A DNA stretch of 51,123 bases from Candidatus Chisholmbacteria bacterium RIFCSPLOWO2_01_FULL_49_14 (GTDB lineage Bacteria; Patescibacteriota; Microgenomatia; UBA1400; Chisholmbacteraceae), in NCBI GenBank assembly GCA_001816915.1, contig MHCL01000023.1:1-51123 (forward strand), written 5' to 3'. Of this stretch, positions 3,555 through 51,123 are shown one piece after another (the first letter of the stretch is position 1; every line of letters starts with the position of its first letter). The position numbers and the translations under genes are program-made. The notes beneath the pieces were generated by a model. It searched no databases. It saw only the letters and a program-made list of their open reading frames with translations, and was not told where the DNA came from.

Positions 3555-3558
3555 TCAA

Positions 3559-34107: not shown

Positions 34108-34179
34108 ACCTTTCCTCCAGTATGGCATATTTCCGCCCGACTTGGCAAACCCCCCTCTATAGTATGATAGGTGTACTTT

Positions 34180-35046
34180 ATGAACGCGCACTCATCCTAC
34201 AAGGTCGGAAAAGCCGCCATCGTCGGGCGTCCGAATGTGGGCAAGTCCACGCTCCTCAATGCCTTAGTCCAGCACAAGGTGGCGATTGTCTCCGCCAAGC
34301 CGCAGACGACCCGATCCCAGATCGTGGCCTTCCTTGAAGACGAGCGGGGGCAAATCTTTTTTATCGATACGCCGGGTTTTTACGCGGCAAAGGCTGGAAC
34401 CAGCCAATATAACTCGCTGATCTCCCAGTCCATCGAAGAGGCAGACATTATCGTGTATCTGGTTGACCGCACACGGGATTGGGGGCAGGAGGAGGAGCGG
34501 ATCTGGAATCAGATTGAGGCGAGTGAAAAACCGGTGCTGTTGACGCTGAATAAAATTGACGTTTCACAGCCGGATTACTCCAGGAATTATTTGGCTCTTC
34601 TGGAAAAACGGGTCAAAGGCGTGGTCGCGCTTTCCGCACTGCAGGAGAAGAATTTAAAACCCCTTGTCGATGGGATTTTTTCTCTGCTTCCCAAAGGGAA
34701 GCGCGACAAGACCGTTGATTATTTCCCCTCTCCTTTAATTTCTCAATCGAGCCGGGATTGGCTGGCGGAGATCATCCGGGAAAAGGTGTACCGGTTAACC
34801 GGCCAGGAAGTTCCCTATCAGACAAGCGTTCGCGTTACCTCGATTGAAGAGCATGAAGAGACGAATACCATGGTGATCGAAGGCCAGATCATCGTTTCCA
34901 GTGAGCATTACAAACCGATGCTTATCGGACAGAAGGGGCAAAAAATAGAGCAGATCCGCAAAGCTGTACGCAGCGAGCTTGAGCTTGCAACCGACAAGAC
35001 AGTGCATGTACACCTCAAAGTCGTCACTCCCCGCGAAGTCGCATAG
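34180..35046 (+). CDS. era: GTPase Era
   Basis: GRPNVGKST (G1), DTPG (G3), NKID (G4) and a C-terminal KH domain. An alternative start is at 34171. Confidence 0.92.
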   Translation: MNAHSSYKVGKAAIVGRPNVGKSTLLNALVQHKVAIVSAKPQTTRSQIVAFLEDERGQIFFIDTPGFYAAKAGTSQYNSLISQSIEEADIIVYLVDRTRDWGQEEERIWNQIEASEKPVLLTLNKIDVSQPDYSRNYLALLEKRVKGVVALSALQEKNLKPLVDGIFSLLPKGKRDKTVDYFPSPLISQSSRDWLAEIIREKVYRLTGQEVPYQTSVRVTSIEEHEETNTMVIEGQIIVSSEHYKPMLIGQKGQKIEQIRKAVRSELELATDKTVHVHLKVVTPREVA

Positions 35047-35083
35047 GTTTTTTCTTCGAGTCTTCTGGTAAAATAGAACCACA

Positions 35084-35099
35084 TTGCGGGGTCGTCTTC
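35084..35099 (+). repeat. 16-nt duplicate of the tRNA-Gln 5' end
   Basis: CATTGCGGGGTCGTCT at 35084-35099 is identical to 35144-35159, which spans the first 13 nt of the tRNA plus 3 upstream nt. The offset is 60 bp. Confidence 0.8.
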
Positions 35100-35146
35100 C
35101 GATCCACTCGACTTTAGGTCGGTGATCGTGAATACTCGACAAGCAT

Positions 35147-35220
35147 TGCGGGGTCGTCTAATGGTAGGACACATCCCTCTGGAGGATGGTATCGGGGTTC
35201 GAATCCCTGCCCCGCAGCCA
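35147..35220 (+). tRNA. tRNA-Gln (anticodon CUG), CCA encoded
   Basis: Hand-folded 74-nt cloverleaf: U1-A72 acceptor pair, discriminator G73, CATCC-CTCTGGA-GGATG anticodon arm, CGGGG-TTCGAAT-CCCTG T arm. Confidence 0.9.
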
Positions 35221-36780
35221 AGCAGGACGGGAAGCGTTTGAAACTCCTGTTTTACCCTGTACACCCATCCATTTTGTAGGTTCGAAAATCCTTTCTTCTT
35301 TTTCGGCAGCTTTCAGCTGTTTCGAACGGTTCGTCAGGTTTACTGCCTCGTACAACAGTTTAAATGCCGGTGTGTACTGGTAGTCCAGAATACCTGCACG
35401 GATCTTGAGGTTATTGAATACAAAGCGTATGAACTGCCGCTTCTGGGCAAGCTCGGCTTTCCGATAAAGTTCTTTGGCTCGCTGTGAGAGGTCGTAGATA
35501 TTCAGACCGAGCCGGTAATACTTGGTATTCGCCGTTTCGTGGCGTTTGATGGTTGTAAGTAGCGTCTCTTTCTCTTCGGTATATTGCTCGAATTTCCTCT
35601 CGTAGAACTCCTTGGGAATTCGTTCATCAAGTTTATCGTCGTAGAGCTTGTCCAACCGGTTCTGAACACGCTCAAGCTGCTCCTGCAATTGCTTCAGAGA
35701 AGATGAATGATGTGCTATCTCGTCTTTATGGCTTTCTTTCAAAGCTTTCCTTATCCATTCGACAAGCCTCGGGCTTCGCAACTGGAGATTCTGGAAGCCT
35801 TCAACCAGCTGCTCTTCGACTTTCGGTTCTTTAACCCAAGTCTTGTCGGAACAGGCCCTGTATCCGTTGCAGTGTCCGTAGACATGTCTCTTCTGCACTT
35901 CCCAGGTGATCAGTCCTCCGCACTCTCCGCAGCGGATCAGGCTCTTAAACAGGAACATATGCTTCCGGTATTTCGGGGTCGTCTTGCTGACGAGAAGCTG
36001 TTGAACCCTGTCAAACAGTTCGTCGCTCACCAGTGGCTCGTGAGATCCGGGATACAGTTTTCCGTTCCAGAAGATCTTTCCTTTATAGAACGGGTTGGTT
36101 AAAATCCTGTGCGTGTTGCTCCTGACAATATTACCTCCGACGCTGTTCGTCAGACCCATTTCCAGAACCTTCTTTGTCACTTCCGTCAATGAATATTCAC
36201 CGGAAGCGTAGAGTTCGAAGAGTTTTTTGATTAGCGGTGCTTTCTCTTCGTCAACAACGTGGACTTTGTGCCCCGCTTCCCCTACCGTTTTGTATCCGGG
36301 CGGCGGTTTGGTCGGCAGCCAACCCTGGGCTATCTTCTCAACCTGCCCTTTCTTCACCTCTTCGCTTAAGTTGTCGATGTAGTTCTTGGCGAAGATGATC
36401 CGGATACCCCAGTTGAACTTTTCCTGTGAGCGGGAGTTTTGGTGAAGCACAAGCGAGTCCTTTACGAGATGCACCTGACGTTCTGCATCTTCCTCCAGCC
36501 ATTCATCAATCAGGACAGCATCTTTGAAGTTCCGCGTCAGCCTATCTACTTTTTCACAGACGATGATCTTGAGATTGCGTTTTTGCAGGTATTTCAACAT
36601 CTCTGAAAACACAGCTCGTTGTCTCCTTCCGCTCGCGGATTCGGAAATGGAGAAGGTTTTCGCTACGGTGAAGTTGTTCTTCTCCGCATAAGATCTCAAA
36701 AGCTTTTCCTGTGCCGGAAGGGAATATCCCGTTTCTTCCTGTTCTCTTGATGATACTCTTGCAAAAAGTACTGCTTTCAT
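35158..36780 (-). CDS. Large serine recombinase (integrase)
   Basis: N-terminal resolvase domain (AVLFARVSSREQ catalytic Ser, VCEKVDRLTRN), a recombinase domain, the zinc ribbon CGECGG...HCNGYRAC and a coiled-coil. The last 21 codons are antisense to tRNA-Gln. Confidence 0.9.
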   Translation of the reverse strand: MKAVLFARVSSREQEETGYSLPAQEKLLRSYAEKNNFTVAKTFSISESASGRRQRAVFSEMLKYLQKRNLKIIVCEKVDRLTRNFKDAVLIDEWLEEDAERQVHLVKDSLVLHQNSRSQEKFNWGIRIIFAKNYIDNLSEEVKKGQVEKIAQGWLPTKPPPGYKTVGEAGHKVHVVDEEKAPLIKKLFELYASGEYSLTEVTKKVLEMGLTNSVGGNIVRSNTHRILTNPFYKGKIFWNGKLYPGSHEPLVSDELFDRVQQLLVSKTTPKYRKHMFLFKSLIRCGECGGLITWEVQKRHVYGHCNGYRACSDKTWVKEPKVEEQLVEGFQNLQLRSPRLVEWIRKALKESHKDEIAHHSSSLKQLQEQLERVQNRLDKLYDDKLDERIPKEFYERKFEQYTEEKETLLTTIKRHETANTKYYRLGLNIYDLSQRAKELYRKAELAQKRQFIRFVFNNLKIRAGILDYQYTPAFKLLYEAVNLTNRSKQLKAAEKEERIFEPTKWMGVQGKTGVSNASRPAWLRGRDSNPDTILQRDVSYH

Positions 36781-37018
36781 AACTTCAATGCCCTCACTGG
36801 TGTGCTCAGACCTGTTAGAGTCTGTCCAATGAGGGCATTAAAAACTCCAACAGGTTTTCTGAGCACGATCTTATTATCAACTCTTCTCTGGATTATTTCA
36901 ACTCTAAACGTAATAGTTACAATTCTTTACTGCATAACAACATTACGGTATTTCTCTTTAACTTCAATATTCCATACCAGATCATTACTAGTAATGTTAC
37001 TGTATTACTACATAGTGA

Positions 37019-37306
37019 CTATATTTGATTTGTATATTCTCTAGCTTTATCTACTATCATTTTCTGTAAACGAAGCCAAAGGTTGGGATCTCGAAAGCGC
37101 ACCACCCAAAAATATTTTCCGTTCCTTCCTTTCACACTTGGAGGGCCGACCACCCATACCGGATTATGAGGAGAGCCTTTTGTCGTGGTGTATCTAGCCA
37201 TGAATCCTCGGATTTCAATTACCCCAGACACCACAGCGTTTGCGATAACAACGTTGCTCTTGGGGTCGTATTTCTTAATATGAATTTCAATATCTTCTAT
37301 ATTCAT
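37019..37306 (-). CDS. Hypothetical protein (possibly a SpoVG-like fold)
   Basis: 95 aa. There is loose resemblance to SpoVG (alternating beta pattern, GFMAR...VWVVGPPS...RFRDP...IVDKAREY). No search was done. Confidence 0.45.
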   Translation of the reverse strand: MNIEDIEIHIKKYDPKSNVVIANAVVSGVIEIRGFMARYTTTKGSPHNPVWVVGPPSVKGRNGKYFWVVRFRDPNLWLRLQKMIVDKAREYTNQI

Positions 37307-37307
37307 G

Positions 37308-37556
37308 TCAATTATCAGTGAAAATTAAATGTTTCAACGTTCGAATCGCGTCCGCGTATTCCTTGGCATTGACATCAACCGTCTTTGAGAAGAACTGTTG
37401 CTGAAGCGATTCACAAAGATGGCGATCGCTGAATACGAACCAACAGATTTTGTATTCGCGATTTACTCTTTCCAGCCGCACCCCTTTGGCATAAAGAAGT
37501 GCTGAGAGACTGAGATCTTTGGAGAAGAAGAAGTCGTTGTTACTATCCATAATCAA
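37308..37556 (-). CDS. Hypothetical protein, DUF5659-like
   Basis: 82 aa. LSALLYAKGVRLERV...WFVFSD...DAIRTLKHLIF matches my recollection of DUF5659. It is a paralogue of 39377-39628. Confidence 0.5.
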   Translation of the reverse strand: MIMDSNNDFFFSKDLSLSALLYAKGVRLERVNREYKICWFVFSDRHLCESLQQQFFSKTVDVNAKEYADAIRTLKHLIFTDN

Positions 37557-37590
37557 TCATTCTCTTTCTATCTCATCTGAGAAAAAAACT

Positions 37591-37815
37591 TCACGATTCT
37601 GCCTGGTAATATCCAGGATTTTTCTTTTTCAGTTCTCTTATGATGGTGTATAGCCCTTTTAGCCTTTTTGGTCGTAGATTCCAGAGAGGACATCCAGTGA
37701 TTTGGCATCGCAAGACTTCTTTTGCCTGACAACAGACGCAGTCGAGGCATTTCATGGCTATCGCCTTATTCAGGTTTTTGATTTCTCTCCGGAGATTGAG
37801 TTTGTTAGTTCTCAT
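37591..37815 (-). CDS. Small Cys-rich protein
   Basis: 74 aa. KCLDCVCCQ...LRCQITGCPLW contains six Cys and suggests a Zn-binding module. Confidence 0.5.
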   Translation of the reverse strand: MRTNKLNLRREIKNLNKAIAMKCLDCVCCQAKEVLRCQITGCPLWNLRPKRLKGLYTIIRELKKKNPGYYQAES

Positions 37816-37836
37816 CGTTGATTTGCCTCTGAAAAT

Positions 37837-38007
37837 TCAAGATCGTCTCATTTTGTCCTTGTGGCTACTTGAATCAATTTCCTCCAGGAGCCCGAAAAAG
37901 CCGATCAGATTATTAGCCACTTCCAATATAATTCTCGGCTTAAGCTTCAGCCCATATTCTTCTTCTAAAATTATCTTGAGCTCTGCTTTAATCTGTTCAC
38001 TGATCAT
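37837..38007 (-). CDS. Possible 56-aa ORF, below the track cutoff
   Basis: Hand-translated as MISEQIKAELKIILEEEYGLKLKPRIILEVANNLIGFFGLLEEIDSSSHKDKMRRS. It lies on the same strand as the surrounding operon. Confidence 0.3.
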   Translation of the reverse strand: MISEQIKAELKIILEEEYGLKLKPRIILEVANNLIGFFGLLEEIDSSSHKDKMRRS

Positions 38008-38087
38008 GAGATTTCGTGAGGCTCTTTGTTTTCGGTGATACCGATGTCCTTCGAGGCTGCTTGGATCTATCTCTGTGAGCTAGGATC

Positions 38088-38424
38088 TCACCCAATACAA
38101 AAACCACCCTCATCACAGAACTTGCTAAAATCTTCAATGTATTTGCACCACTCTTCATCTTTCTCCTTTTTGACTTCAGGTAGTGCTTTTTTTTAAAGCT
38201 TTTGAGAGATTTCTTGTGTCTTGATCTGTAACAACTTGCCAGTGGTTAGAAAAATAATCACCTTCCCACCTTTTTTCTGAAACTCAAAGTTTTTTGAAAA
38301 TTTCTCTGTATGGCTTTGTCCCTTCCGGTTCCCAGCCATGTTCGTATGCTAGATTGAGTACATAACTCCATCCAAACCTGTTAAATCTGAAAGCTCCCCC
38401 TTTTCCTCTCAAATCCATTCCCAT
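38088..38424 (-). pseudogene. Fragmented gene (one frameshift plus one in-frame TAA)
   Basis: An AAGGAG SD precedes the ATG at 38424, giving MGMDLRGKGGAFRFNRFGWSYVLNLAYEHGWEPEGTKPYREIFKKL, which stops at 38284. The reading continues in another frame (FEFQKKGGKVIIFLTTGKLLQIKTQEISQKL), passes a TAA at 38193-95, and continues KKALPEVKKEKDEEWCKYIEDFSKFCDEGGFCIG to 38088. Confidence 0.45.
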
Positions 38425-38456
38425 ATGTCTTAACTCCTTTCTGAGTACATTCTTAT

Positions 38457-38843
38457 TTATTCATTATCTGTGTATGGATACTTGAATTTTTCGAAATTCT
38501 CCTTTTCTAGTGAATGTAGTTTTTTTATTGGTATCGTCAGATAAATCGTTTTGTCTTCAACAACAACGCCTGACTCGTTGATAAGTTCATCAAATAAGAT
38601 CCATCCAACCAGCTGAAGTCGTCTCTCAGCCAGAGAGTAAATTGAAAAGATGTATACGTCTATGCCGAAATCATGTTATGCCAAATCCAATGCGACTAAA
38701 TTTTCTGGATTACTGTTCCATAGGTTGCAACTGCCTGTCCTAGATCGAAGATTCAGCTTATGCTTGGGGGATACCAGAACATTTGGACCATTTACCATAT
38801 TTTTAAACTCTGTGTAATCGTTTCTGATATCAAATTTAGTCAT
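38457..38843 (-). pseudogene. 128-codon gene interrupted by an in-frame TAA
   Basis: The ATG at 38843 overlaps the TGA of the upstream gene (ATGA). After 55 codons there is a TAA (38676-78), followed by 72 further in-frame sense codons with no Met (HDFGIDVYIFSIYSLAERRLQLVGWILFDEL...). Confidence 0.5.
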
Positions 38844-39343
38844 TTATCCTTTCTACTAATGATTGCACCTACGTCCGATTGCTCAACTCCTTTTTCGTAA
38901 TGAAGTTCAACCTTTTCTTTTTTTGAACCTTTTTTAATGGGTTTAGTAGAGCGTAATCTATCTACTATTCTTCCAAGCGCATGAAGCCTCTCCTGGTCAT
39001 TTTTAAAGCACGCATCCATGATTTCCGCTCTCTCTACGGCGATACGTGTTGTTTTAGCCAACCCAAAATTCATGTCTAAAATACGAAGATCAAGGCATAA
39101 TGGGATTTCATCTCTATCAATGAAAAGGACTTCCATCCATGCGTGTCTGAAGGTAACGCATCCCTCCTTCTTTTGCCCTATGTATTTGACCCGCAACTTT
39201 AGGCTGGCCAAATCTCTAGAGAAGTTACTGCGATATATTCTCTCTGTAATCTTCCAACCTCTTTCTTTAATTTCTTCTTCAAATGTTTTGAGCAATACTG
39301 ATTGATAAAATCTGTATAGTTCTTTAAATTGATGGTTGTTCAT
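38840..39343 (-). CDS. Hypothetical protein
   Basis: 167-aa ORF in the island operon. No motif recognised. Confidence 0.55.
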   Translation of the reverse strand: MNNHQFKELYRFYQSVLLKTFEEEIKERGWKITERIYRSNFSRDLASLKLRVKYIGQKKEGCVTFRHAWMEVLFIDRDEIPLCLDLRILDMNFGLAKTTRIAVERAEIMDACFKNDQERLHALGRIVDRLRSTKPIKKGSKKEKVELHYEKGVEQSDVGAIISRKDK

Positions 39344-39376
39344 ACTTGCGAAGAGTTATTAAGATGGTTACGCTTC

Positions 39377-39628
39377 TTACCCTCTGCTTGTAACCTCGTA
39401 GACTTTATGTCTGAAAGTATCTACTGCGTCCAAGAGATCTTTGGGCTGAACAAGGGGAGCTTGCCTACTCAGAAACGAGTTAACTAATTGCAGGCATTTC
39501 TCGAGTGGAGAGAATTGGAAGTAGATGATTGAGTTCTCTACTCTTGTCCCTAGGAACTTTATGTTGGGTTGAATCAGAAGAAACGGGCAAATTTGCCTAT
39601 CTTTACTCTCATATCTTGTTTGGTCCAT
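39377..39628 (-). CDS. Hypothetical protein, DUF5659-like paralogue
   Basis: It shares the pattern F-x-F-S-(D/P)...C..L...F.S....V..K...DA..T.(K/R)H.(I/V)(F/Y) with 37308-37556. Confidence 0.45.
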   Translation of the reverse strand: MDQTRYESKDRQICPFLLIQPNIKFLGTRVENSIIYFQFSPLEKCLQLVNSFLSRQAPLVQPKDLLDAVDTFRHKVYEVTSRG

Positions 39629-39713
39629 AGAGCTTCTCCATTACTTCATCTTTCCTTAGTCTATAGACGGAAATCAGATTTGAAAAAACCCAATAGAACA
39701 GCGGTTTGATGGG

Positions 39714-40574
39714 TTAGTTAGAGGTGTCCGTGAAAAGTTGCATGAAGCGTTTTATTTCTCTGCTCGATTTGTTTTGTTCAAAACCCCAAAGACCTTTGTC
39801 TTTCATCCACTTTATTGTGTCTTTATGTGTTAATCCCATATGCTTTTTTAGAACGAAGTAAAAATATCTATTCAAAAACGTCTCCTCGTCTTGTCTGTTA
39901 GCATCAAAATAGTTTGGAAACTTCTTCTGAATCTGCTTTAACATATTTGGCCAGCCTCTCTTTCCAGTGTTGGCTAAACTTGTGTGAGAATAGATCTTTA
40001 TCTCTAAGTAGGGTTCTAATGTATTAGGTTCTACTTGTATACTCATCCTCGGTGGTTGTTTTCTAAAAAGAACAAATCCAGGTGTAATTTCCTCGTATAA
40101 CACATAGTTCTTAATCGCTTTGTGCCAGATCGCGTTTAACTTTTTTAATTTGATCAATCGCAGCCTTCCAATTTCTCGCAAAATTGTCTTAAGTTTCTTG
40201 CTCTCCCAAGAGTTAATCTTTTTCTCAATCGCGTGTAGTTTGTCTGAAGCATTCAAATCGGGAAATAACTTCCCTCTCGCGAATTCCCGGGATACAGTAA
40301 AGTATCTATTGCATGCATTCTTACCTATCGCCTTCATTAAGTCCCTTTTCATTTGTTCCGGTTTGATCTGATACTTCAACCTAATGCCCTCGACCTCTCT
40401 ATTAAACTCTGGGATAAATCGCAATATATCTGCTATTGGCAACCAATAAGGCTTTTCGTGACCACCTTGCTTTTTAGGATTATTCTTTCGATCATCCAAG
40501 TAATCCAGTAGAAAACCTAAGTCGTACTCTCTCCGAAGAATAGCATCAATTTTTTCTTCATCTTCATCTTTCAT
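39714..40574 (-). CDS. Hypothetical protein (286 aa, basic)
   Basis: Long ORF at the head of the minus-strand island operon. No motif recognised. Confidence 0.55.
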   Translation of the reverse strand: MKDEDEEKIDAILRREYDLGFLLDYLDDRKNNPKKQGGHEKPYWLPIADILRFIPEFNREVEGIRLKYQIKPEQMKRDLMKAIGKNACNRYFTVSREFARGKLFPDLNASDKLHAIEKKINSWESKKLKTILREIGRLRLIKLKKLNAIWHKAIKNYVLYEEITPGFVLFRKQPPRMSIQVEPNTLEPYLEIKIYSHTSLANTGKRGWPNMLKQIQKKFPNYFDANRQDEETFLNRYFYFVLKKHMGLTHKDTIKWMKDKGLWGFEQNKSSREIKRFMQLFTDTSN

Positions 40575-40786
40575 ATTTTGATCTGTATTTTAACTGATTT
40601 GGTAAAATATAGATGAAAAGTGAATAATGCCTAAACCTTCCGGTATTTAACCGTCTGGCATGGCACAAAAACCTTGTGAGGAATAAGCTCCTCGTCAGAG
40701 CACCTCACAAGGTCATATCTCAAAAGGGGTATGGGTGGCGCAAGCCATCGCTGGCGGGGAGCTTCGTGTTCTCCAGCCTAATCGCA

Positions 40787-41491
40787 ATGACTATGAAGTG
40801 CCAACATTGCAAAGGAGAAATAAGTTCAAAATCTGAATATTGTTCTCACTGTGGTCAGAAATTGAAAGGCAAATATGATTCCCAAAATCCTAAAATAAAC
40901 CTTCTGGTGTTTACCGTCTTATCTTTTCTAAGTGGAGGGATTTATTTCCCTATCTGGTTTTGGCGAAGGCACTCTTTCTTTGGATACGACACTGATCAAC
41001 ACCGATTACCAATACTCAATAAATGGTTTTTGGTTGCAGCAATGTTGATTCTAATGGCTACTACTGTAATTGGGGGATGGTATAGTGCTAATTTAAGGAT
41101 TTTTGAACATGAGTTTAAAGAGCAAGCTCTTGAACATATTAGGGCAGGGGAAGATATTTTATCGGTATATAAAGACGACTCTGAACTACTAAATAAGCGA
41201 ATCTCCTTAGAAGGCAATATTCTCCTCACGGGAATAGTTAAGGGAATAATTGGTATGTTTTTGATTTATCAAGCTTTCATTGCTAGGAATGTTATTAATG
41301 TATATCTAAAGGAGGCATATCAAAAACAGATTTCTAGATGGGTGTGGATAACATCTGGCTTTTGCTTTTATATTATTTTTACGCTCGTAGGAAGCTCCAC
41401 TGATGGACTTCTGTGGTCTAATTTTCCTTTAATATTCTGGATGCAATACAAAATAAACCGCCTTTCTGAGAAAAATAATCGGAGAAGATAG
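40787..41491 (+). CDS. Zinc-ribbon plus DUF4234-like membrane protein
   Basis: MTMKCQHCKGEISSKSEYCSHCGQKL zinc ribbon, followed by TM segments with GGIYFPIWFWRR (the DUF4234-type GIY..W motif). The upstream part of the track ORF lies within a hairpin. Confidence 0.55.
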   Translation: MTMKCQHCKGEISSKSEYCSHCGQKLKGKYDSQNPKINLLVFTVLSFLSGGIYFPIWFWRRHSFFGYDTDQHRLPILNKWFLVAAMLILMATTVIGGWYSANLRIFEHEFKEQALEHIRAGEDILSVYKDDSELLNKRISLEGNILLTGIVKGIIGMFLIYQAFIARNVINVYLKEAYQKQISRWVWITSGFCFYIIFTLVGSSTDGLLWSNFPLIFWMQYKINRLSEKNNRRR

Positions 41492-41520
41492 GTCAGATTA
41501 CTAACAAGAATAGTAATAAA

Positions 41521-41709
41521 ATGAAGAAACAGAAACCAATTATATTTCTAGGAGAGAAATTAGACCCAGAGTATTACCCTATCCTGTACGAGAAGGCGAA
41601 GAAACATCCCGAAGAGTTGAAGCGCCAGCTCCTCAGCCTCGCGAAACTCCCCGGCGGGAGCATCCGGTCAGCGAAACAGGCGCTGGAAAGCGACCTCCAG
41701 CATGGATAG
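41521..41709 (+). CDS. Hypothetical small protein
   Basis: 62-aa ORF. Its 3' half is conspicuously more GC-rich than its neighbours. Confidence 0.35.
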   Translation: MKKQKPIIFLGEKLDPEYYPILYEKAKKHPEELKRQLLSLAKLPGGSIRSAKQALESDLQHG

Positions 41710-41736
41710 CTGAGTACCCATATTCTCCTGGGCTGC

Positions 41737-41994
41737 CTATTGGGCTGAAGAGCCGGCGGTTCTGGCTTGAGGTTCAGAGAACTGCGTCAGGTAAATAACC
41801 ATACCGCCGTTCTTACTTACTTCTTCGTTCTCCTTCTCAATCTGACTCGCTTCAGCTTCACTAAGGAAGTAGCCTTCCCCATCAATAAGCCTGCCATCCT
41901 GGGTTATGTGACGAACAACCTCAACATACTTATCTTTATTCCGCGCCTTGTCGAATTTGCTCTCCAGTTGTCTCAGTCTGACTTTGGTTGTCAT
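41737..41994 (-). CDS. Hypothetical protein
   Basis: 85 aa. Its ATG overlaps the TGA of the upstream gene (ATGA at 41991-94). Confidence 0.45.
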   Translation of the reverse strand: MTTKVRLRQLESKFDKARNKDKYVEVVRHITQDGRLIDGEGYFLSEAEASQIEKENEEVSKNGGMVIYLTQFSEPQARTAGSSAQ

Positions 41995-42356
41995 ACTTTT
42001 GCCTGATCCAGTCGTTTCTCTAGTTCCTCAACTCGTGTCTCCAACTCGCTCTTGTCATAAGCATCCAAGAAAGTCTTTGCCAGGTAGCCCAGTGATCCGG
42101 CGGGATTGTTGGCAGGCATCTTGCCGGTCCAGAGGCTGTTGAGTGCTTTCTCCATCAGTCTTTTTATATCTTCCGGTGTGTCCAGCTTCATTCTTCTGCC
42201 GAGCTGGTGATACTGCCTTTTGGCTTTTCCGCCATCAGAGGAGGCACTGAGAGCCTGCTCACGGGTCTCCTGATCATGTCGGAAGCAATACACACCTCCG
42301 TGCATAGCGTTAGCCTGGCATTGTGCGCCGTTTGATTTTATTGCCTTACATTTCAT
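41991..42356 (-). CDS. Hypothetical protein with an N-terminal Cys/His motif
   Basis: The N-terminus MKCKAIKSNGAQCQANAMHGGVYCFRH has a C..K..G.QC...A..G..YC..H pattern common in phage and plasmid small proteins. Confidence 0.5.
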   Translation of the reverse strand: MKCKAIKSNGAQCQANAMHGGVYCFRHDQETREQALSASSDGGKAKRQYHQLGRRMKLDTPEDIKRLMEKALNSLWTGKMPANNPAGSLGYLAKTFLDAYDKSELETRVEELEKRLDQAKV

Positions 42357-42591
42357 AACTAAGTTACCCCCATACAGAGAAGCATCTTCTGACTCGATTA
42401 TCTCACACTTTATACCTCGAGATAAATATTTATTGGTGTCTTGTAGCCTTCCTCTCGATTATCAATCAGTCCTGAGGTAAAATATGGGGAGAATGTATAC
42501 GCAGAATAAATCAATCATTGATAACGACAAGATTAAACTCTTTTCCGAACTAAAAAGCTATGAAGAACGATGATTTAATGAGATAAATACT

Positions 42592-45582
42592 ATGAAGTCC
42601 CCAATCTTAAACTCTCCATACTTCGAACCCAATCTCCATTTCAATGCAGATGAGAGTGGTTTAACTGAAGAAATCTTGGAATTTCGCAGACCAAGCAGTT
42701 TTTATATTCCTGTCCCGCGCGCTAGAACAAAACAAAAGCAACTTGAACTGAATATTGCCGAAGGTGCTTTTGGGAACGAGTTACAGAAAGAAAACGAGTT
42801 CATCAATAAAATACGAGAAAAAATAAAGCATTGGAGGGAGAGCGGTGATGCTGGAATTACCAAAACCTCACGGGATCTCTTATCTTACTGGAGGGACGAG
42901 ACAAGGGAAAACAAACTATTTTTCTGCCAAATAGAAGCATTAGAGACCTTTATTTACATAAACGAGGTGGCAGAAAAATCAGGAGAGAGCTGGATTATCA
43001 ACGAATTAAAAAAAGCCAACAAAGAAGCTAACCCAGGACTCCATCGTTTAGCTTTTAAAATGGCAACCGGTTCGGGAAAGACAGTTGTCATGGCCATGAT
43101 CATTGCTTACCACACTCTCAATAAAATTCGCTATCCGCAAGATACCCGCTTTACGGACGCCTTTGTGATCATCACACCAGGAATCACTATCCGCGATCGT
43201 TTGAATGTTCTGCAACCAAACAATCCCGGTAACTATTACTTAAAGCACGGCGTAGTCTCCTACCAAGACTTTGCGTTGTTGAATCAGGCAATTATTTTTA
43301 TAACCAATTTCCATCAGCTAGAGCTTCGGCAAAATCCACGATTCCAAGTTGGTGCGGTTATGAAGGCTGCTGGCATTTTGAAAGACGAGGCGATCAAAGA
43401 AACACCAGATGCAATGGTAAACAGAACTTTTAAAAGCGTTTTGAACAAACCGCGCGTACTGGTGATCAATGACGAGGCCCACCACTGTTATCGGGAAAAT
43501 CCGGATCATGGAAAGCTCACCGGCGAAGAAAGGAAAGAAGCTGACGAAAACAACAAGGCGGCTCGGGTCTGGATTAATGGTCTGGAAGCACTATCTAAAA
43601 AGGTAAATATAAACGCGCTTATTGACCTTTCGGCAACACCTTATTTTTTGCGTGGTTCCGGCTATCAAGAGGGGACAATGTTCCCTTGGACTGTTTACGA
43701 TTTCTCTCTTCTAGACGCGGTGGAGTGCGGTGTTGTTAAAATACCGCGCCTTCCTATCGAATCAGATACTATTTCCAAGGACGATATACCGGAGTTCCGC
43801 AATCTTTGGCTTTATGTACGGGACGATCTACCCAAAAAGGGGTTGAAGACCGGAGGAAAAGATTACCTGTCGGTGAGTGTTCTACCGACTAAACTTCAGG
43901 AGGCTCTCGAATCTCTTTACGGTAGTTACGAAAAATACTATATAGAATACAAGGAGCAGAAAAAGGAAAATTCTGCAGTTATGCCACCAGTAATGATAGT
44001 CGTATGCAACAACACCTCAGTTTCCGAACTGGTATACCGTTGGATTGCTGGTTATAAAAGGGAAACAGCGAGTAAACAAACAAAGGTTGAAAGAGGCAAT
44101 CTTGAAATATTCCGAAATGAAGACGGAGTCCAATTTTACGATCGGCCAAACACGCTGCTTATCGACAGCGCGCAACTGGAAAGCGGCGAAAAGATTAGCG
44201 CCGAATTTAAAAATATATTTTCTCAAGAAATAGAAGACTTTCATAAAGATTATCGTAGGCGCTTCACTAATGGGACCGAGCCTACCGACGAAGAGCTCTT
44301 GCGTGAAGTTATGAACACCGTTGGTAAACCCGGCAAACTCGGTGAAAATATCAAATGTGTGGTATCCGTCTCAATGCTTACTGAAGGATGGGATGTTAAT
44401 ACCGTTACCCATATTCTTGGTGTCCGCGCTTTTTCTACTCAGCTTCTCTGCGAGCAGGTTGTTGGTCGGGCACTTCGCCGCATTGATTACACGGCTGACG
44501 AATCAACCGGGATGATGTCGGCAGAATACGCCGAAGTTTATGGTGTGCCGTTCAGCTTCTTAAAAGTCACTGGCGTAACTCCGCCCCAGCCTCCAAAAGT
44601 TATTCATCGCGTCCACGCGTTGCCAGAGCGAGAACAATACGAAATTACCTTCCCACGAGTTGAGGGTTACCGCTACGAGCTTGATGAAGCCAAACTGGCG
44701 GCTCGATTTACCGAGGAATCAAAAACAATCATTGAGAACGAACCAACTGAAGTAACTTCAGCGGGAGTAATTGGCGAAAAAGTGAAAGAGATGATGGAGA
44801 AAATCAGAGAACGCCGCGAGGGAGAAGTAATCATCCGGCTCACACAAGCGCTTCTAAAACGCTACTACACCGATGCCGACGGTACGGAGAAGTACTGGCT
44901 AACACCGCAGCTAAGAAAAATTGTTGAGGAATACGTTAAAAATCATATCATTTTAAAAGATCGCATGGTGGTCGGTTATCTTTCGGTTGGCGAATACTTT
45001 TCTGGTGCGCTTACCAAAATCCAGCAGGCCATCATTATTGAAAATCTGGAGCACCAAAAAGACAAACGATTGTTGCCAATACTCGCGCCATATGACACGC
45101 TTGGCTCCACTCGTTATGTGGATTTCCTTACCACAAAACCTGTTGCACTAACAACCAAGAGCCATGTCAATTATGTAGTAGCCGATACCGAAGAGTGGGA
45201 GCAGGGTGTGGCAAAGAAACTTGAACAAATGCCGGAAGTACTTGCCTATGTTAAAAATCAAAATCTCGGCTTCACCATTCCTTATGAGCATCAAGGTGTA
45301 GCGCACCAATATGTACCGGACTTTATTGTAGTTTTGAAAATGGCTGATAAGTCAAAACTTAATCTGTTGATAGAAGTTACTGGCAAGAAAGATGACAAAA
45401 AAGCGATGAAAGTTAAAACTTCGCACGATCTTTGGGTACCAGCCGTCAACAATATCGGTAAGTATGGGAGATGGATTATGTTGGAGGTACAGGATATCCA
45501 CGAAACACAAAATCTTATCCGTGCCGGCATAGACAGGGGTTTTGATAATTTAACATCTGATAATTTATTTAACAAGAAATAA
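42592..45582 (+). CDS. res: Type III restriction enzyme Res subunit (SF2 helicase plus PD-(D/E)xK nuclease)
   Basis: ATGSGKT (motif I), NDEAHHC (DEAH), SATP, LTEGWDVNTVTHILG, QVVGRALRR (motif VI) and a C-terminal YVPDFIVV...LLIEVTGKKD nuclease motif. Confidence 0.9.
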   Translation: MKSPILNSPYFEPNLHFNADESGLTEEILEFRRPSSFYIPVPRARTKQKQLELNIAEGAFGNELQKENEFINKIREKIKHWRESGDAGITKTSRDLLSYWRDETRENKLFFCQIEALETFIYINEVAEKSGESWIINELKKANKEANPGLHRLAFKMATGSGKTVVMAMIIAYHTLNKIRYPQDTRFTDAFVIITPGITIRDRLNVLQPNNPGNYYLKHGVVSYQDFALLNQAIIFITNFHQLELRQNPRFQVGAVMKAAGILKDEAIKETPDAMVNRTFKSVLNKPRVLVINDEAHHCYRENPDHGKLTGEERKEADENNKAARVWINGLEALSKKVNINALIDLSATPYFLRGSGYQEGTMFPWTVYDFSLLDAVECGVVKIPRLPIESDTISKDDIPEFRNLWLYVRDDLPKKGLKTGGKDYLSVSVLPTKLQEALESLYGSYEKYYIEYKEQKKENSAVMPPVMIVVCNNTSVSELVYRWIAGYKRETASKQTKVERGNLEIFRNEDGVQFYDRPNTLLIDSAQLESGEKISAEFKNIFSQEIEDFHKDYRRRFTNGTEPTDEELLREVMNTVGKPGKLGENIKCVVSVSMLTEGWDVNTVTHILGVRAFSTQLLCEQVVGRALRRIDYTADESTGMMSAEYAEVYGVPFSFLKVTGVTPPQPPKVIHRVHALPEREQYEITFPRVEGYRYELDEAKLAARFTEESKTIIENEPTEVTSAGVIGEKVKEMMEKIRERREGEVIIRLTQALLKRYYTDADGTEKYWLTPQLRKIVEEYVKNHIILKDRMVVGYLSVGEYFSGALTKIQQAIIIENLEHQKDKRLLPILAPYDTLGSTRYVDFLTTKPVALTTKSHVNYVVADTEEWEQGVAKKLEQMPEVLAYVKNQNLGFTIPYEHQGVAHQYVPDFIVVLKMADKSKLNLLIEVTGKKDDKKAMKVKTSHDLWVPAVNNIGKYGRWIMLEVQDIHETQNLIRAGIDRGFDNLTSDNLFNKK

Positions 45583-45584
45583 AT

Positions 45585-48053
45585 ATGAGAAAGAAAAAAA
45601 TATTAAAGCCAACCACCGCTGCACCGGTAGAATCCTACAAACACGATGCAAAACGTACTCACATCCCCACACAAGAAGAGTCAATTAAGCTTTCTGCTCG
45701 AGAAAAGCAACCAGTCAAGAAAAAATATGATTATGATCCATCCCTTGATCCCCAACTAGTTTGGGCAGGCAAGAAAGAGCAGGGTGCTGAGTTTGCTGTA
45801 TCCACAGTGCCGATCTACGTGCAGGAGAAGATCGCGCCCGAAGCACTCATTGCTCGTCTCAAGCTTGGCGCGGAAGAAAACGCGCAAATGATGCTCTTTG
45901 GTGAGACGGCAGAAACACAGGTATCCAAAGCTGTTGAATTCTACAAGCACGAGGATAACTGGCAAAACCGAATGATTTTAGGTGATTCGCTACTGGTAAT
46001 GAATAGCTTGCTGGAAAAAGAAGGCATGCGCGGACGGGTGCAGACCATCTATATTGACCCGCCATATGGAATTAAGTTCGGCTCCAACTGGCAAGTTTCC
46101 ACGCGCAAGCGTGATGTTAAAGATAATAAACTGGAAGATTTCATCCGCCAGCCGGAGCAAGTCAAAGCCTTTCGCGATACCTGGGAACTGGGCATTCACT
46201 CTTATCTTTCTTATCTGCGCGACCGACTTCTCATCGCCCGCGAATTGCTAACCGAAAGCGGGAGTTGTTTTTTGCAGATAAATGATGAGAATGTACACCT
46301 GATTCGAAGTCTAATGGATGAAGTTTTCGGCACACAAAACTCTATATGTGGAATTGTTTATAAAAAGAAAGGTATGATGTTAGGTTCAAAATATCTCGAA
46401 ACAATGAATGATTATGTAATTTGGTATGCGAAGGATAAAAGTAATTGTAAATATAGAGGTCTTTTCGAAAAAACTGAATTCGAACTTGATTCCCGATGGA
46501 ATATGGTCGATCTTGTAAATCAGGTGAGAAGATCCCTATCAAAAGAGGAAAGGGAAAGTAATAAAATTCCGACTGGAGCAAAAGTTTTCGATTTGTTTCC
46601 ACTGCGTGCTCCTTCTTTTAGTGAAAAATCGGTATTTGATTTTGAGTTCGAAGGTAAAATATATAGCCCTGCGAGAGGCTCATGTTGGGTCACAACAAAG
46701 GAGAAAATGGAATATTTGAAGAACATGAATAGAATCTATGCACAAGGCAATGATCTATTTTTTGTCCAGTATTTAGACGATTTTCCCTTTAGAAAATTGT
46801 CAAATCTATGGTTAGATTCAAGACAGACTGAAAAAATATATGTAGTGCAGACTTCTATAAAGATTCTTCAACGCTGCATTTTAATGACGAGCGATCCGGG
46901 GGATATCGTACTTGACCCGACTTGTGGTTCGGGCACGACTGCTTTTGTTGCCGAGCAGTGGGGTAGGCGCTGGATTACGATTGATACTTCGCGCGTGGCT
47001 TTGGCACTGGCGCGTACGCGTTTGATGACCGCTAAGTTCCCGTACTATAAGCTCAAGGAAAATGGTGACCATCCCAATGTTGCGGCAGGTTTTATTTACA
47101 AAACCGTCCCGCATGTGACACTCAAATCTCTTGCTAATGATGAACCGGCGGAGCAAGAAGTTTTATATGATCAGCCAGCGGAAAATAAAAATATTGTCCG
47201 TGTAACTGGCCCATTTACTGTTGAATCACTTTCACCGCACCGCGTATCGGACGCACAGGAAATGCTCTCAAGTGAGCGTTTTGCAGAAACAGTTATATCT
47301 AACCTTTTGAAATCCGGAGTGCAGACCGGCGAGAAAAGAGCGCGGGTGGAGTTTGTGCATTTGGATATTTTACCCAGCGGCCCCGAAGTGCAAGCGATCG
47401 GGGAATACAAATCTGCCGGTGGTCTAAAAAAGGTTGCGGTTTCCATTGGTCCTGAATTCGGCAGTGTGGATGATGACTTCATCCGCGATGCCGCAAAAGC
47501 TGCCAAAAAGTTTGCTGATTTGCTTGTAGTCGCCGCCACATCATTTGAAGCATCCGCGTTTTCTGAACCGTCGCAGACAAACGGCTTACAGATTATGAAA
47601 GTCAAAATCAATCCCGATTTGTCTATGGGCGACTTGCTCAAAAAAACTGGATCAGGCAACTTGTTTCTCGCTTTTGGTGAGCCTGATATAAGGGTTAAAG
47701 GAACTACAGACGGTGTTGTAGTGGAAGTGCTCGGTGTGGACATCTATGATCCGGTCAAAAGCGCAATCCGCAGTAGCGGCTCCGGCGATCCGGAGCACGA
47801 AATCGCCGCATGGTTTATAGATACAAATTACAACGGCGAAGCTTTTTTCATCACGCATGCATATTTCCTCGGCGCAGATAAACCATACGAGAAACTCAAG
47901 AAGGCACTCAAGGCAGATATCAACGAAGACGCGTGGGAGGAACTCTATTCCACTATTTCTCGCCCATTTCCCAAACCAAAAACCGGCAAAATTGCCATCA
48001 AAGTCATAAACCATTACGGCGACGAAGTAATGAAAATTGTTGATGTTAAATAA
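45585..48053 (+). CDS. mod: Type III-like DNA methyltransferase Mod (beta-class, DPPY)
   Basis: IYIDPPYG (motif IV) precedes VLDPTCGSGTTAFVA (motif I). The gene starts 2 nt after the res stop. Confidence 0.9.
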   Translation: MRKKKILKPTTAAPVESYKHDAKRTHIPTQEESIKLSAREKQPVKKKYDYDPSLDPQLVWAGKKEQGAEFAVSTVPIYVQEKIAPEALIARLKLGAEENAQMMLFGETAETQVSKAVEFYKHEDNWQNRMILGDSLLVMNSLLEKEGMRGRVQTIYIDPPYGIKFGSNWQVSTRKRDVKDNKLEDFIRQPEQVKAFRDTWELGIHSYLSYLRDRLLIARELLTESGSCFLQINDENVHLIRSLMDEVFGTQNSICGIVYKKKGMMLGSKYLETMNDYVIWYAKDKSNCKYRGLFEKTEFELDSRWNMVDLVNQVRRSLSKEERESNKIPTGAKVFDLFPLRAPSFSEKSVFDFEFEGKIYSPARGSCWVTTKEKMEYLKNMNRIYAQGNDLFFVQYLDDFPFRKLSNLWLDSRQTEKIYVVQTSIKILQRCILMTSDPGDIVLDPTCGSGTTAFVAEQWGRRWITIDTSRVALALARTRLMTAKFPYYKLKENGDHPNVAAGFIYKTVPHVTLKSLANDEPAEQEVLYDQPAENKNIVRVTGPFTVESLSPHRVSDAQEMLSSERFAETVISNLLKSGVQTGEKRARVEFVHLDILPSGPEVQAIGEYKSAGGLKKVAVSIGPEFGSVDDDFIRDAAKAAKKFADLLVVAATSFEASAFSEPSQTNGLQIMKVKINPDLSMGDLLKKTGSGNLFLAFGEPDIRVKGTTDGVVVEVLGVDIYDPVKSAIRSSGSGDPEHEIAAWFIDTNYNGEAFFITHAYFLGADKPYEKLKKALKADINEDAWEELYSTISRPFPKPKTGKIAIKVINHYGDEVMKIVDVK

Positions 48054-48209
48054 GGTTACTTTGGTGGTATTAAATACTCAAGTGTTAAGGGTTCGAAAGC
48101 TATTAAAAATAAAGAATACGAAAGACAAATTAACCAATTAGTTTATAAACTCTACGGCCTCACGCCGGAGGAGATAGCAGTTGTCGAAGGGAAAAATGAA
48201 AATAATTGA
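48054..48209 (+). pseudogene. In-frame post-stop extension of mod carrying a methyltransferase C-terminal tail motif
   Basis: Reading on in the mod frame past its TAA gives GYFGGIKYSSVKGSKAIKNKEYERQINQLVYKLYGLTPEEIAVVEGKNENN then a stop. The (V)Y.LYGLT.EEI..VE tail is a recurrent C-terminus of large R-M and BREX-type methyltransferases. Confidence 0.5.
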
Positions 48210-48699
48210 ATCAGTAACTCAAGGTGAAGTTTTTAGCCATTGGGAAAAAATAGAAAAAAGAAGCATTTGGCAAAGAGCTGATATCGTTTTTCCTCTTGTG
48301 GCCTACGCTGATTTGACTTGGAGTTTGACTGAAATTGAAAGTGCGGATATTGAAAAACTCTATATTTGCTCATCAGACGATTGGCAAGCAGAAGGTCTTT
48401 GTTTCCCTGATTTCAAACTCGTTACGGCAATAGATAACTATAAAAAATCTAACTTTAGCTATGGGAAGTATGCCGATATTAAAGGCAAAGAAAACGTATA
48501 TGTAAAGAGTGTCAACGATCTTGATAATAAATTTATTCTAGTTGCAGATTCTATTACAGGTCCCTTCGCAATAATAGAGGGGTGTAAAAGAGCTGTTGCC
48601 TTAGGCAAGCTAGATAAGTTAACCGGTAACGAAGTATATCTGGGCACCTCGCCCAGTATAAGAAGTTTCGTCTGGACTAGGCACATGTATCAAAGTTAA
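48196..48699 (+). CDS. Hypothetical protein (cassette gene 1)
   Basis: 167 aa from the ATG at 48196, with a GAAGGG purine tract upstream. The track uses the TTG at 48181. No motif recognised. FAIIEGCKRAVAL is only vaguely ParB/DGQHR-like. Confidence 0.5.
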   Translation: MKIIESVTQGEVFSHWEKIEKRSIWQRADIVFPLVAYADLTWSLTEIESADIEKLYICSSDDWQAEGLCFPDFKLVTAIDNYKKSNFSYGKYADIKGKENVYVKSVNDLDNKFILVADSITGPFAIIEGCKRAVALGKLDKLTGNEVYLGTSPSIRSFVWTRHMYQS

Positions 48700-48715
48700 A
48701 AAAGCTCAAAACAGA

Positions 48716-49678
48716 ATGAAAAAAGATAATAGTACAGAAATAAATCAAAAAGGATATAAAACCCTTTTTCTCCAGATATTTCAACTTAAAAACTTTCTCA
48801 TTTTTGTAGGAAGCGGTGCTTTACTCTTTATTCCTATTTTTGCTGAAAACGATAAATGGTTGAGAGTTCAACCGTTCTTTATTGCATGGTTAATGCTTGT
48901 TGGTATCTGGTTTTTGTTGATTCTTTCAATATACAGAGGCGAACTTGAAAATAGAATAATTTCATTTGTTGGCGATGTTATAAGGCGCATTATACCCATT
49001 CTTCTAGTTCTTTTAGCTTTATATTTTATATTATTACCCTTTGAATTAAGAAAAAGTTTAGGAATCATAGTTCTTACCTTTGCAGTTTCGTTGCTTTGGA
49101 GAAGAAGTAAAACTTTATCAGTAGTATCGGATAGTTTAGTAGAGAAAAAAAGGATAAAGACATTGATAAAGAAAAAAGGGAAAGTGATAGGGTTGACAGG
49201 TTGGATGGCTACGGAAACAAATAATGAGCAAGGGACAAACTACAGAGAAATAAATTTAGAAGGAAAGCCTCTCGAGACCTTGGAGTTTAGAGTGAAACCC
49301 TCCACAGTTTTTTGGCGGGCGGGGTTTAAATTTACTGATCCGAACGGAACAATTTTGCCGCTTAGAACTACAAATAGTTTGTTGTTCCACATAGGGGCAA
49401 GTGAATCTCGTAGCAAATTCGGTGTTACTGCCTACAGAAATAGTGATTGGGACCCTTCCCTTAACAAAACCTTGGACTACGATAATACCAGCTTTATTAG
49501 TATTAGGTTTGAAGTTAACCAAAAGAATTTTATCAAATGTTTTATAAATAATAAGCTTGAGTATAAACCCAAAGAACGAGTTGATCCGCGCATATTAGAA
49601 AAGGTGTTTTTGGCCGCCTGGGGAGATGGTAACCCCTATAGAGTTGAATTCGATAACATTCAATTTACTACAAGATAA
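48716..49678 (+). CDS. Membrane protein: four N-terminal TM helices plus a beta-rich C-terminal domain (cassette gene 2)
   Basis: Four hydrophobic helices lie in aa 27-127. The ~170-aa C-terminal domain has alternating beta patterns (FWRAGFKF, LLFHIG, FGVTAY, ISIRFEV, VFLAAWGDG, YRVEFDNIQF) suggesting a jelly-roll or lectin-like fold. Confidence 0.55.
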   Translation: MKKDNSTEINQKGYKTLFLQIFQLKNFLIFVGSGALLFIPIFAENDKWLRVQPFFIAWLMLVGIWFLLILSIYRGELENRIISFVGDVIRRIIPILLVLLALYFILLPFELRKSLGIIVLTFAVSLLWRRSKTLSVVSDSLVEKKRIKTLIKKKGKVIGLTGWMATETNNEQGTNYREINLEGKPLETLEFRVKPSTVFWRAGFKFTDPNGTILPLRTTNSLLFHIGASESRSKFGVTAYRNSDWDPSLNKTLDYDNTSFISIRFEVNQKNFIKCFINNKLEYKPKERVDPRILEKVFLAAWGDGNPYRVEFDNIQFTTR

Positions 49679-49679
49679 T

Positions 49680-50291
49680 ATGACTGAATCCCTAGCCCTA
49701 GAATTAGTAGAAAGATATCTCAAAAATCATAAGTACGATCCTAAAAGGATAGATACTAAAAAGTTACAGTCTAGCAGAAAAGCACCAGATTTCGAGGTAA
49801 ATGAAAATGATGTACTAAAATTTTACTGCGAGATAAAAACTCCAGCTTTAAAACCAAGCGCACAAACACGAATATTTCATTGGACAACTATAATCTCCAA
49901 GCTTAGAGATTTAATACACAAGGCAGTAAAACAGTTTAAGAATCAAGACCCTAATCATCTAAAACCCTGGGTGCTTATTTTTACTTCAGATCATTTTCAA
50001 TTGAACTGGTCTAATTTCGTTCACTGCCTTCAGGGTGCTGTTGCTTATAATTCTCAAATTATTAAGGACTTAAGCAATCAAAGATTTATAGTAGATACGC
50101 AAGACGATATAAAGACCATTGATCTATTTGTTTGGTGTCAAGTTAATGCGCAGGCGAAAAGGATTTACCAAATGGTGCATTTTGTAAATGGTAATTCAGA
50201 TTTATTAGAAAAAACAAAAGCAATCAGTGGTAAGTTAATCCCTTATGCTAGTGAAAGCATAATGAACAAGAGTTCAAGAAAATATACTTAG
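49680..50291 (+). CDS. PD-(D/E)xK nuclease-like protein (cassette gene 3)
   Basis: The start is 1 nt after the previous stop. KAPDFEVNENDVLKFYCEIKT fits D-x(13)-E-x-K after an N-terminal helix. Confidence 0.45.
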   Translation: MTESLALELVERYLKNHKYDPKRIDTKKLQSSRKAPDFEVNENDVLKFYCEIKTPALKPSAQTRIFHWTTIISKLRDLIHKAVKQFKNQDPNHLKPWVLIFTSDHFQLNWSNFVHCLQGAVAYNSQIIKDLSNQRFIVDTQDDIKTIDLFVWCQVNAQAKRIYQMVHFVNGNSDLLEKTKAISGKLIPYASESIMNKSSRKYT

Positions 50292-50292
50292 T

Positions 50293-51072: not shown

Positions 51073-51123
51073 AGTGGATCACAGAGATTATCTGATAAAT
51101 AAGAATGATAAATATACTTGAAA

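Follow-up and report, generated by a model that had tools for sequence, protein, structure and literature searches.

A large serine recombinase (LSR) gene that runs into the opposite strand of a tRNA-Gln(CTG) gene would, in our estimate with a probability of about 0.8, encode the integrase of a mobile defense island inserted at the end of that tRNA. The window, i.e., the whole 51,123-nt stretch of DNA that was analyzed, is the entire contig C23 of a 1.21-Mb, 29-contig assembly, and the contig ends inside a low-GC island. It is likely that this phage-defense island, at least 15.9 kb long in the window, entered the last bases of tRNA-Gln(CTG) by serine recombination, and we consider the window, with good confidence, an integrated member of the same LSR element family as the relatives described below.

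In this explanation the 3' end of the LSR gene contains the attachment site attP, and therefore integration cuts the gene. After integration the gene body would adjoin the tRNA and read through its antisense strand to a chance stop, and the last ∼30 codons, which encode a three-helix tail in relatives, would have moved to the far end of the island. The full-length enzyme would then be encoded only by the excised circle or with the help of a tandem neighbor. The tRNA would stay intact because only about 4 nt (positions 71 to 74) are shared between element and host. The enzyme probably reads TTCGAA of the tRNA T loop as the motif of its zinc-ribbon domain, and the arm carried by the element would mimic that motif 5 bp further out. 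The relevant features of the window are the following.

34171 to 35046, + strand: era GTPase gene, host flank (era before tRNA-Gln also in the three other genomes of the family)
35147 to 35220, + strand: tRNA-Gln(CTG), intact, CCA encoded (ARAGORN)
35158 to 36780, − strand: LSR gene, 540 amino acids (aa), stop in the tRNA D arm (ORF and Pfam)
35161 to 35214, − strand: 18 codons, R523 to H540, from the tRNA antisense strand (ORF reading)
35198 to 35203, unstranded: T-loop TTCGAA, candidate zinc-ribbon-domain motif of an attB-type half-site, 11 nt from the core
35215 to 35218, unstranded: predicted recombination core, sense CAGC (C71, A72, G73, and C74 of the tRNA), deduced from relatives
35237 to 35242, unstranded: TTTGAA, candidate attP-type half-site motif in the LSR coding end (sequence reading)
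35281 to 35286, unstranded: TTCGAA encoding the conserved F-E of the xFEx motif (codon usage)
36781 to 51123, unstranded: low-GC cargo, cut by the contig end (GC content and domain searches)
37308 to 37556, − strand: DUF5659 gene among small uncharacterized cargo genes on this strand
42592 to 45582: res of a type III restriction-modification pair
45585 to 48053: mod of the same pair
48181 to 51072: four-gene module with a HEPN-like gene

The LSR open reading frame (ORF) is the longest on the strand opposite the tRNA. It runs from 36780 down to 35158 and has the C-terminus ...AWLRGRDSNPDTILQRDVSYH; its stop codon (35158 to 35160) corresponds to tRNA nt 12 to 14, in the D arm. ARAGORN and the ORF reading thus agree with an earlier sequence-only reading, which had placed the end of the ORF at 35158, inside the tRNA at 35147 to 35220. 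The 63-nt run of coding sequence into tRNA-Gln that it reported is also correct if the stop is included (60 coding nt plus the stop). However, it had counted 21 tRNA-derived residues, and there are 20: W521 to H540 are the antisense of tRNA nt 15 to 74, and A520 lies outside the tRNA. According to ARAGORN this tRNA is the sole CTG isoacceptor in the assembly; at the junction it forms the host arm, which is of the B type. The residues from R523 to H540 are a host-encoded replacement tail that is probably not under selection, a reading based on the fact that in relatives both the length and the sequence of the tail change with the host tRNA. The length of the read-through is by itself not improbable, as 20 stop-free codons have a chance probability of ∼0.4; at this tRNA in the closest relatives, the frame closes after 4 to 11 codons. 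It is the repeated joining of LSR genes to tRNA 3' ends across the family, not how far the frame stays open, that goes beyond chance.

The protein matches the Pfam families Resolvase (PF00239; residues 3 to 153, E value of 1e-19), Recombinase (PF07508), and Zn_ribbon_recom (PF13408), as well as the PHROG 95 integrase over residues 1 to 461 and, distantly, the A118 integrase structure 4KIS. The features of serine integrases are present: a resolvase-type catalytic domain with the serine nucleophile, and a recombinase domain with a zinc ribbon. Long helices at 337 to 441 in the AlphaFold model of a homologue correspond to an inserted coiled coil. In the alignment, catalytic residues R8 and S10 fall in invariant or near-invariant columns and the zinc cysteines C284, C287, C304, and C310 are invariant; the ORF is intact, with every invariant catalytic and zinc residue in place. 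Scores against the NCBIfam CcrB, CcrA, and XisF models were far under their cutoffs, and the ORFs neighboring the LSR in the window gave no resolvase-domain match. Five near-identical variants of the protein occur in other assemblies, and proteins identical to it (P0121 and P0124) are encoded on 85.6-kb contigs.

Relatives of this LSR number in the thousands and are found mostly in Patescibacteria. Among homologues with 55 to 65% identity, the C termini are alike as far as a motif whose last two residues are W-L or L-L, beyond which there are three classes: the antisense of a tRNA T arm, typically x-D-S-N-x-x-P; a stop two or three residues on, right after ..LRG; or a conserved tail of ∼30 residues starting with W-D-D-F-R-T. 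The LSR gene ends in the 3' end of an opposite-strand tRNA at no fewer than 63 of 80 genome loci. At 41 of the 80, ARAGORN identified a tRNA on the opposite strand that overlaps the end of the ORF by 13 to 61 nt; 31 of these tRNAs are Asn (GTT), 5 are Gln, 4 are Asp, and 1 is Ser. The T-arm motif is present at the junction in 22 further loci, many of which are tRNAs with a group I intron. Such an intron (Rfam RF00028) lies directly behind the junction in L023, L024, L026, L034, L046, L054, L056, and L061; the target tRNAs of these eight were missed by ARAGORN, and the LSR ORF continues into the antisense strand of the intron. Finally, in one 90% cluster, LSRs that are more than 90% identical become wholly different after the W-L codons, which locates the break point there.

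Both ends could be assigned in 10 relatives, elements of 3.5 to 18.6 kb, two of which (L101 and L102) are at tRNA-Gln(CTG). When the tail HMM was run in six frames, an orphan tail was found on the LSR strand, 3.5 to 7 kb upstream of the gene, at eight loci with a tRNA-ended LSR. In L101 and L102, the two closest tRNA-Gln(CTG) relatives (58% identity to the window protein and the same six-base junction), the tail fragments, with E values of 5e-10 and 4e-9, are separated from the tRNA by 15.5 and 18.6 kb. The two junctions of each element share 4 to 9 nt only, at the acceptor end (tRNA positions ∼71 to 74), in 10 of 10 cases. The codon phase of the core does not differ between the two junctions, again in all 10, and the tail frame at the far end is open, with a stop ∼30 codons on; thus, the gene body plus the far-end fragment make up an uninterrupted full-length gene. 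By homology, then, these relatives support two suggestions made from the sequence, that the crossover lies within or at the 3' edge of the tRNA (the shared acceptor-end bases) and that the C terminus of the integrase is swapped (the in-phase, open tail fragment). The DNA of L101 and L102 is 93% identical across the tRNA and the LSR gene and 97% identical in the 63 nt of the far end, and their cargo differs; on sequence comparison, this pattern is the signature of one mobile element family with an exchangeable load.

In tRNA terms, the core consists of the last acceptor bases, the discriminator G73, and C74, and each of 47 tRNA junctions has a GC dinucleotide at a distance of 13 nt from the T-loop motif. 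The core predicted for the window, at 35215 to 35218, is based on the junctions of L101 and L102, which share only these bases. It is therefore at the W-L codons (35215 to 35220 in the window) that attP would, quite probably, lie inside the 3' end of the LSR gene, and we infer that the island in the window has the same far end as its relatives.

The geometry of the half-sites resembles that of known serine integrases. Counted from the core, the T-loop motif (N-TCGAA) starts at +12 in the window, as it does in the tRNA arms of all 10 two-ended relatives. In 8 of the 10 far-end arms, the best TTCGAA-like match begins at +17, where the codons for D-D-F-R-T form the motif. The motif is 5 bp nearer the core in the tRNA arm than in the far-end arm. 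With A118-type integrases, the distal motif is 5 bp nearer the center in attB than in attP (Rutherford et al., PMC3783163), and by that rule the tRNA is the B-type arm and the far end is the P-type arm. This combination of a short shared core and a 5-bp attB/attP shift is present in the 10 two-ended relatives; the window is readable on the tRNA arm only. In the LSR coding end of the window, TTTGAA is 18 nt to the element side of G73-C74 versus 13 nt for the T loop, so spaced that in this one sequence the 3' end of the LSR gene may be the second P-type arm. The conserved F-E of the xFEx motif is encoded ∼22 codons before the core, in a region that corresponds to a disordered linker, and has the same position in L015 to L094. 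The F is specified by TTC in 42 of 46 cases, versus 36% gene-wide, and the E by GAA in 58 of 60, versus 66% gene-wide. Such codon usage reflects a constraint at the DNA level, and the resulting TTCGAA is a third T-loop-like hexamer.

The far junction of the window's own island was not found in the assembly when the other 28 contigs were searched for a tail fragment and a matching junction. The sequence-only reading had proposed looking for a partial copy of the tRNA-Gln 3' end; this search was run over the assembly and gave no copy of 12 nt or more, the 12-mers matching only the T arms of other tRNAs. Such a check would probably fail in any case because only ∼4 nt are duplicated. The tail HMM, run on six frames of the whole assembly, gave nothing below an E value of 10; core-plus-arm pattern searches of the assembly gave two matches, both unrelated; and there is no second or inverted copy of the junction in the window. 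We also sought the right host flank by synteny, but the genes that follow tRNA-Gln in G001 to G003 are absent here or are in the middle of contigs. An exact 20-nt scan of JGI metagenomes returned four matches, all of them unrelated, high-GC chance matches. Because the far junction is missing from the assembly, the swap mechanism for this island rests on its relatives.

The GC content is 0.502 to the left of the tRNA, 0.479 in the LSR gene, and 0.403 from 36781 to the end of the contig. Thus, the abrupt change in composition described from the sequence is real, but it is not at the tRNA: the sharp drop is at ∼36.8 kb, the 5' end of the LSR gene, 1.6 kb to the right of the tRNA. Since the GC content of the LSR gene is near that of the host and that of the cargo is 0.403, the gene and the cargo may differ in history. 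The composition of the cargo is foreign, and its content is that of a typical mobile defense load; the contig ends inside it, which bears out the statement that the right end of the island is missing from the window. We also made the proposed comparison with related genomes that lack the island. In the three other genomes of the host family (G001 to G003), era is followed by tRNA-Gln(CTG) without an LSR. In G002 and G003 this tRNA ends with ..GCAG, followed by CTA or CAG, versus CCA and then the end of the LSR gene in the window, and these sequences fit a junction at G73/C74.

A different arrangement is the rule for islands of tyrosine integrases: a long stretch of the tRNA 3' part is copied in the element and the crossover is well inside the tRNA, in the T or anticodon loop. 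Applied to the window, the present 3' part of the tRNA would be element DNA, and a partial copy of tRNA-Gln would be at the other end of the island. A serine recombinase, DsiB, does insert at the T loop of ssrA with a 20-bp repeat (PMC3146451), and in L089 an exact 15-nt copy of the tRNA-Asn 3' end (624 to 638) occurs near the far end. However, that copy is 170 nt outside the tail-bearing junction and may be the trace of an older event. Moreover, neither the 4 to 9 nt to which sharing is limited in the 10 two-ended relatives, nor the immediate divergence of near-identical LSRs after the W-L codons, nor the lack of a tRNA-Gln copy of ≥12 nt elsewhere in the assembly agrees with a long repeat, and we regard this arrangement as distinctly unlikely.

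It is also unlikely that the LSR is an immobile relic or a domesticated gene, in which case the overlap would simply mean that the gene lost its own stop when it became fixed beside the tRNA, and no swap would occur today. Three observations speak for such a gene: the far end was not found in the assembly, the GC content of the gene is close to that of the host, and the window has only a weak form of the hairpin with a T run that many relatives have behind the tRNA. But a relic would hardly have kept an intact ORF with all the invariant catalytic and zinc residues, be absent from the same tRNA in three other genomes of the family, adjoin foreign cargo of a kind typical of mobile defense islands, and have five near-identical protein variants in other assemblies. 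Very improbable is the idea that the overlap was selected for antisense control, with convergent transcription as the regulator and the tRNA-encoded residues functional in the enzyme. The convergent overlap is indeed family-wide (≥63 of the 80 loci), but the tRNA-encoded tails vary from 0 to more than 40 residues, with a sequence set by the host tRNA and extending even into group I introns; therefore, the tRNA-encoded peptide is not conserved.

Returning to integration through the 3' end of the LSR gene itself, the fate of the detached tail can be considered. For a tail-bearing homologue, AlphaFold gives a well-folded structure up to residue 484, then a disordered linker (487 to 514) and three short helices (516 to 549; pLDDT of ∼72 to 80). 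The tail is most likely translated and useful because conservation extends 40 to 90 bp past the core, far beyond any attP arm, and because the orphan frames are open. In G049, a second LSR gene, directly next to tRNA-Asn, lies 7 kb downstream of a tail-bearing LSR gene, a tandem array whose inner gene takes its tail from the element that arrived later. The same tandem arrangement was found in L033, L052, and L059, and in L102 a decayed LSR end lies beside the far junction. For three of four tail-bearing LSRs in large chromosomal contigs, there was no tRNA or second LSR within 11 to 20 kb downstream, and thus it is not a general rule that a tail-bearing gene is either free or in tandem. In two clusters of tail-bearing LSRs, a tRNA-type end was never seen.

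A tentative proposal, to which we give a rather low probability, is that the tail swap is a built-in directionality switch and that, for this family, the universal T-loop DNA is the motif recognized by the zinc ribbon. If so, the full-length enzyme with its three-helix tail would come only from a circle or a tandem array and would favor integration, and the tail-less chromosomal form would be inactive or would excise only with help. Small elements could then control the direction of recombination without a separate directionality factor, and reading of the T loop would account for the ability of close relatives to move to many different tRNAs. A role of the swap in regulation is something that we infer. 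Whether removal of the tail controls direction is a question that is simply testable, and these proteins are a natural set of serine integrases with a common T-loop DNA motif and different tRNA choices, useful for the study of target choice.

The layout has published precedents. In the Dehalococcoides islands at ssrA, which encodes tmRNA, the 3' end of the dsiB gene always extends over attL, its stop codon being found only within ssrA or an adjoining island, and it was suggested that DsiB may be complete only on the circle or beside a neighboring island (McMurdie et al. 2011, PMC3146451). DsiB and the window LSR are both ∼540 aa and next to attL, the 3' end of each gene overlaps the attachment site, and the stop is outside the element; tandem islands occur in both families. 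In contrast, the target of DsiB is tmRNA, whereas that of the window LSR is tRNA-Gln and those of its family are many tRNAs; DsiB has a 20-bp direct repeat and T-loop insertion, whereas the LSR relatives have a core of 4 to 9 nt at the acceptor end. The DsiB islands also have a second, small serine recombinase, DsiA, and a fixed six-gene module, neither of which was seen in the window. Compared with DsiB as described in the publication, the LSR family is set apart by its conserved helical tail and by its T-loop mimic with the 5-bp shift.

The integrases of A118/LI, phiC31, Bxb1, and SPbeta share with the window LSR the order of catalytic domain, recombinase domain, and zinc ribbon/coiled coil, a minimal core, and the 5-bp shift. 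However, the attP sites of those phages are outside the integrase gene and their targets are mostly protein-coding genes, whereas the attP of the LSR would be in the 3' end of its own gene and its target is the acceptor/T-arm DNA of tRNA genes. In myxophage Mx8, attP is inside int, and integration makes a recombinant gene with a different C terminus (reviewed in PMC6070905). Mx8 Int is a tyrosine recombinase with long core homology, whereas the window LSR is a serine recombinase with a short core; for integrases of the Mx8 and SSV types, which have attP in their own gene, the likeness is in gene layout only, and the tyrosine chemistry is absent from the LSR. Thus, the layout as such is known (DsiB at ssrA, Mx8) but is undescribed for this large tRNA-targeting family of Patescibacteria; our search of the literature on serine recombinases or integrases and tRNAs in Patescibacteria or the Candidate Phyla Radiation found no paper on it. 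The family provides a sequence-level rule for the limits of such islands in Patescibacteria genomes: the near end is the junction at the tRNA discriminator and CCA, and the far end is an orphan tail of ∼30 codons, not a tRNA repeat. Such a rule helps to delimit mobile defense islands in fragmented assemblies.

Several minor observations concern the surroundings of these genes. In many of L015 to L092, a strong hairpin with a T run occurs, in the tRNA sense, within 50 nt after the tRNA 3' end. Its stems vary in sequence but stay complementary (mean z of −2.9 over 47 loci), and in antisense it lies inside the coding end of the LSR; it looks like a terminator that the element supplies to the tRNA. 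In the window this hairpin is not significant (z of −0.67, no scan match). A small DUF5659 gene, a candidate accessory factor, recurs just upstream of LSRs of the family (in the window at 37308 to 37556 on the − strand, in L033 at 5132 to 5374, in L045 at 4754 to 5008, and in L049 at 3401 to 3619). LOOT RNA (RF03000) occurs on the opposite strand 2.3 to 3.1 kb upstream of the LSR start in L019 (3640 to 3750), L024 (4226 to 4336), and L034 (2896 to 3006). More distant relatives on predicted viral contigs (31 to 48% identity; L111, L117, L121, L125 to L127, and others) end at tRNA-Gln, tRNA-Leu, or tmRNA; in others on such contigs the tail is unrelated, with -AA, -VA, or -CA as a frequent ending.

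At L100 (G001, contig C1, 3025 to 3070), where there is no LSR, tRNA-Gln(CTG) is followed by the same six-base junction and by an inverted TTCGAA 17 nt on, which looks like either the trace of an element since lost or a naturally symmetric site. Just upstream of the tRNA in the window there is an exact 16-nt direct repeat (35082 to 35097 and 35144 to 35159), the copies of which are 62 nt apart and consist of 3 nt of leader and the first 13 nt of tRNA-Gln. The upstream copy is where the tRNA would be expected to start relative to a −10-like box, as in the relative G003, and therefore the functional tRNA-Gln seems to have a 62-nt insertion or duplication in its leader.
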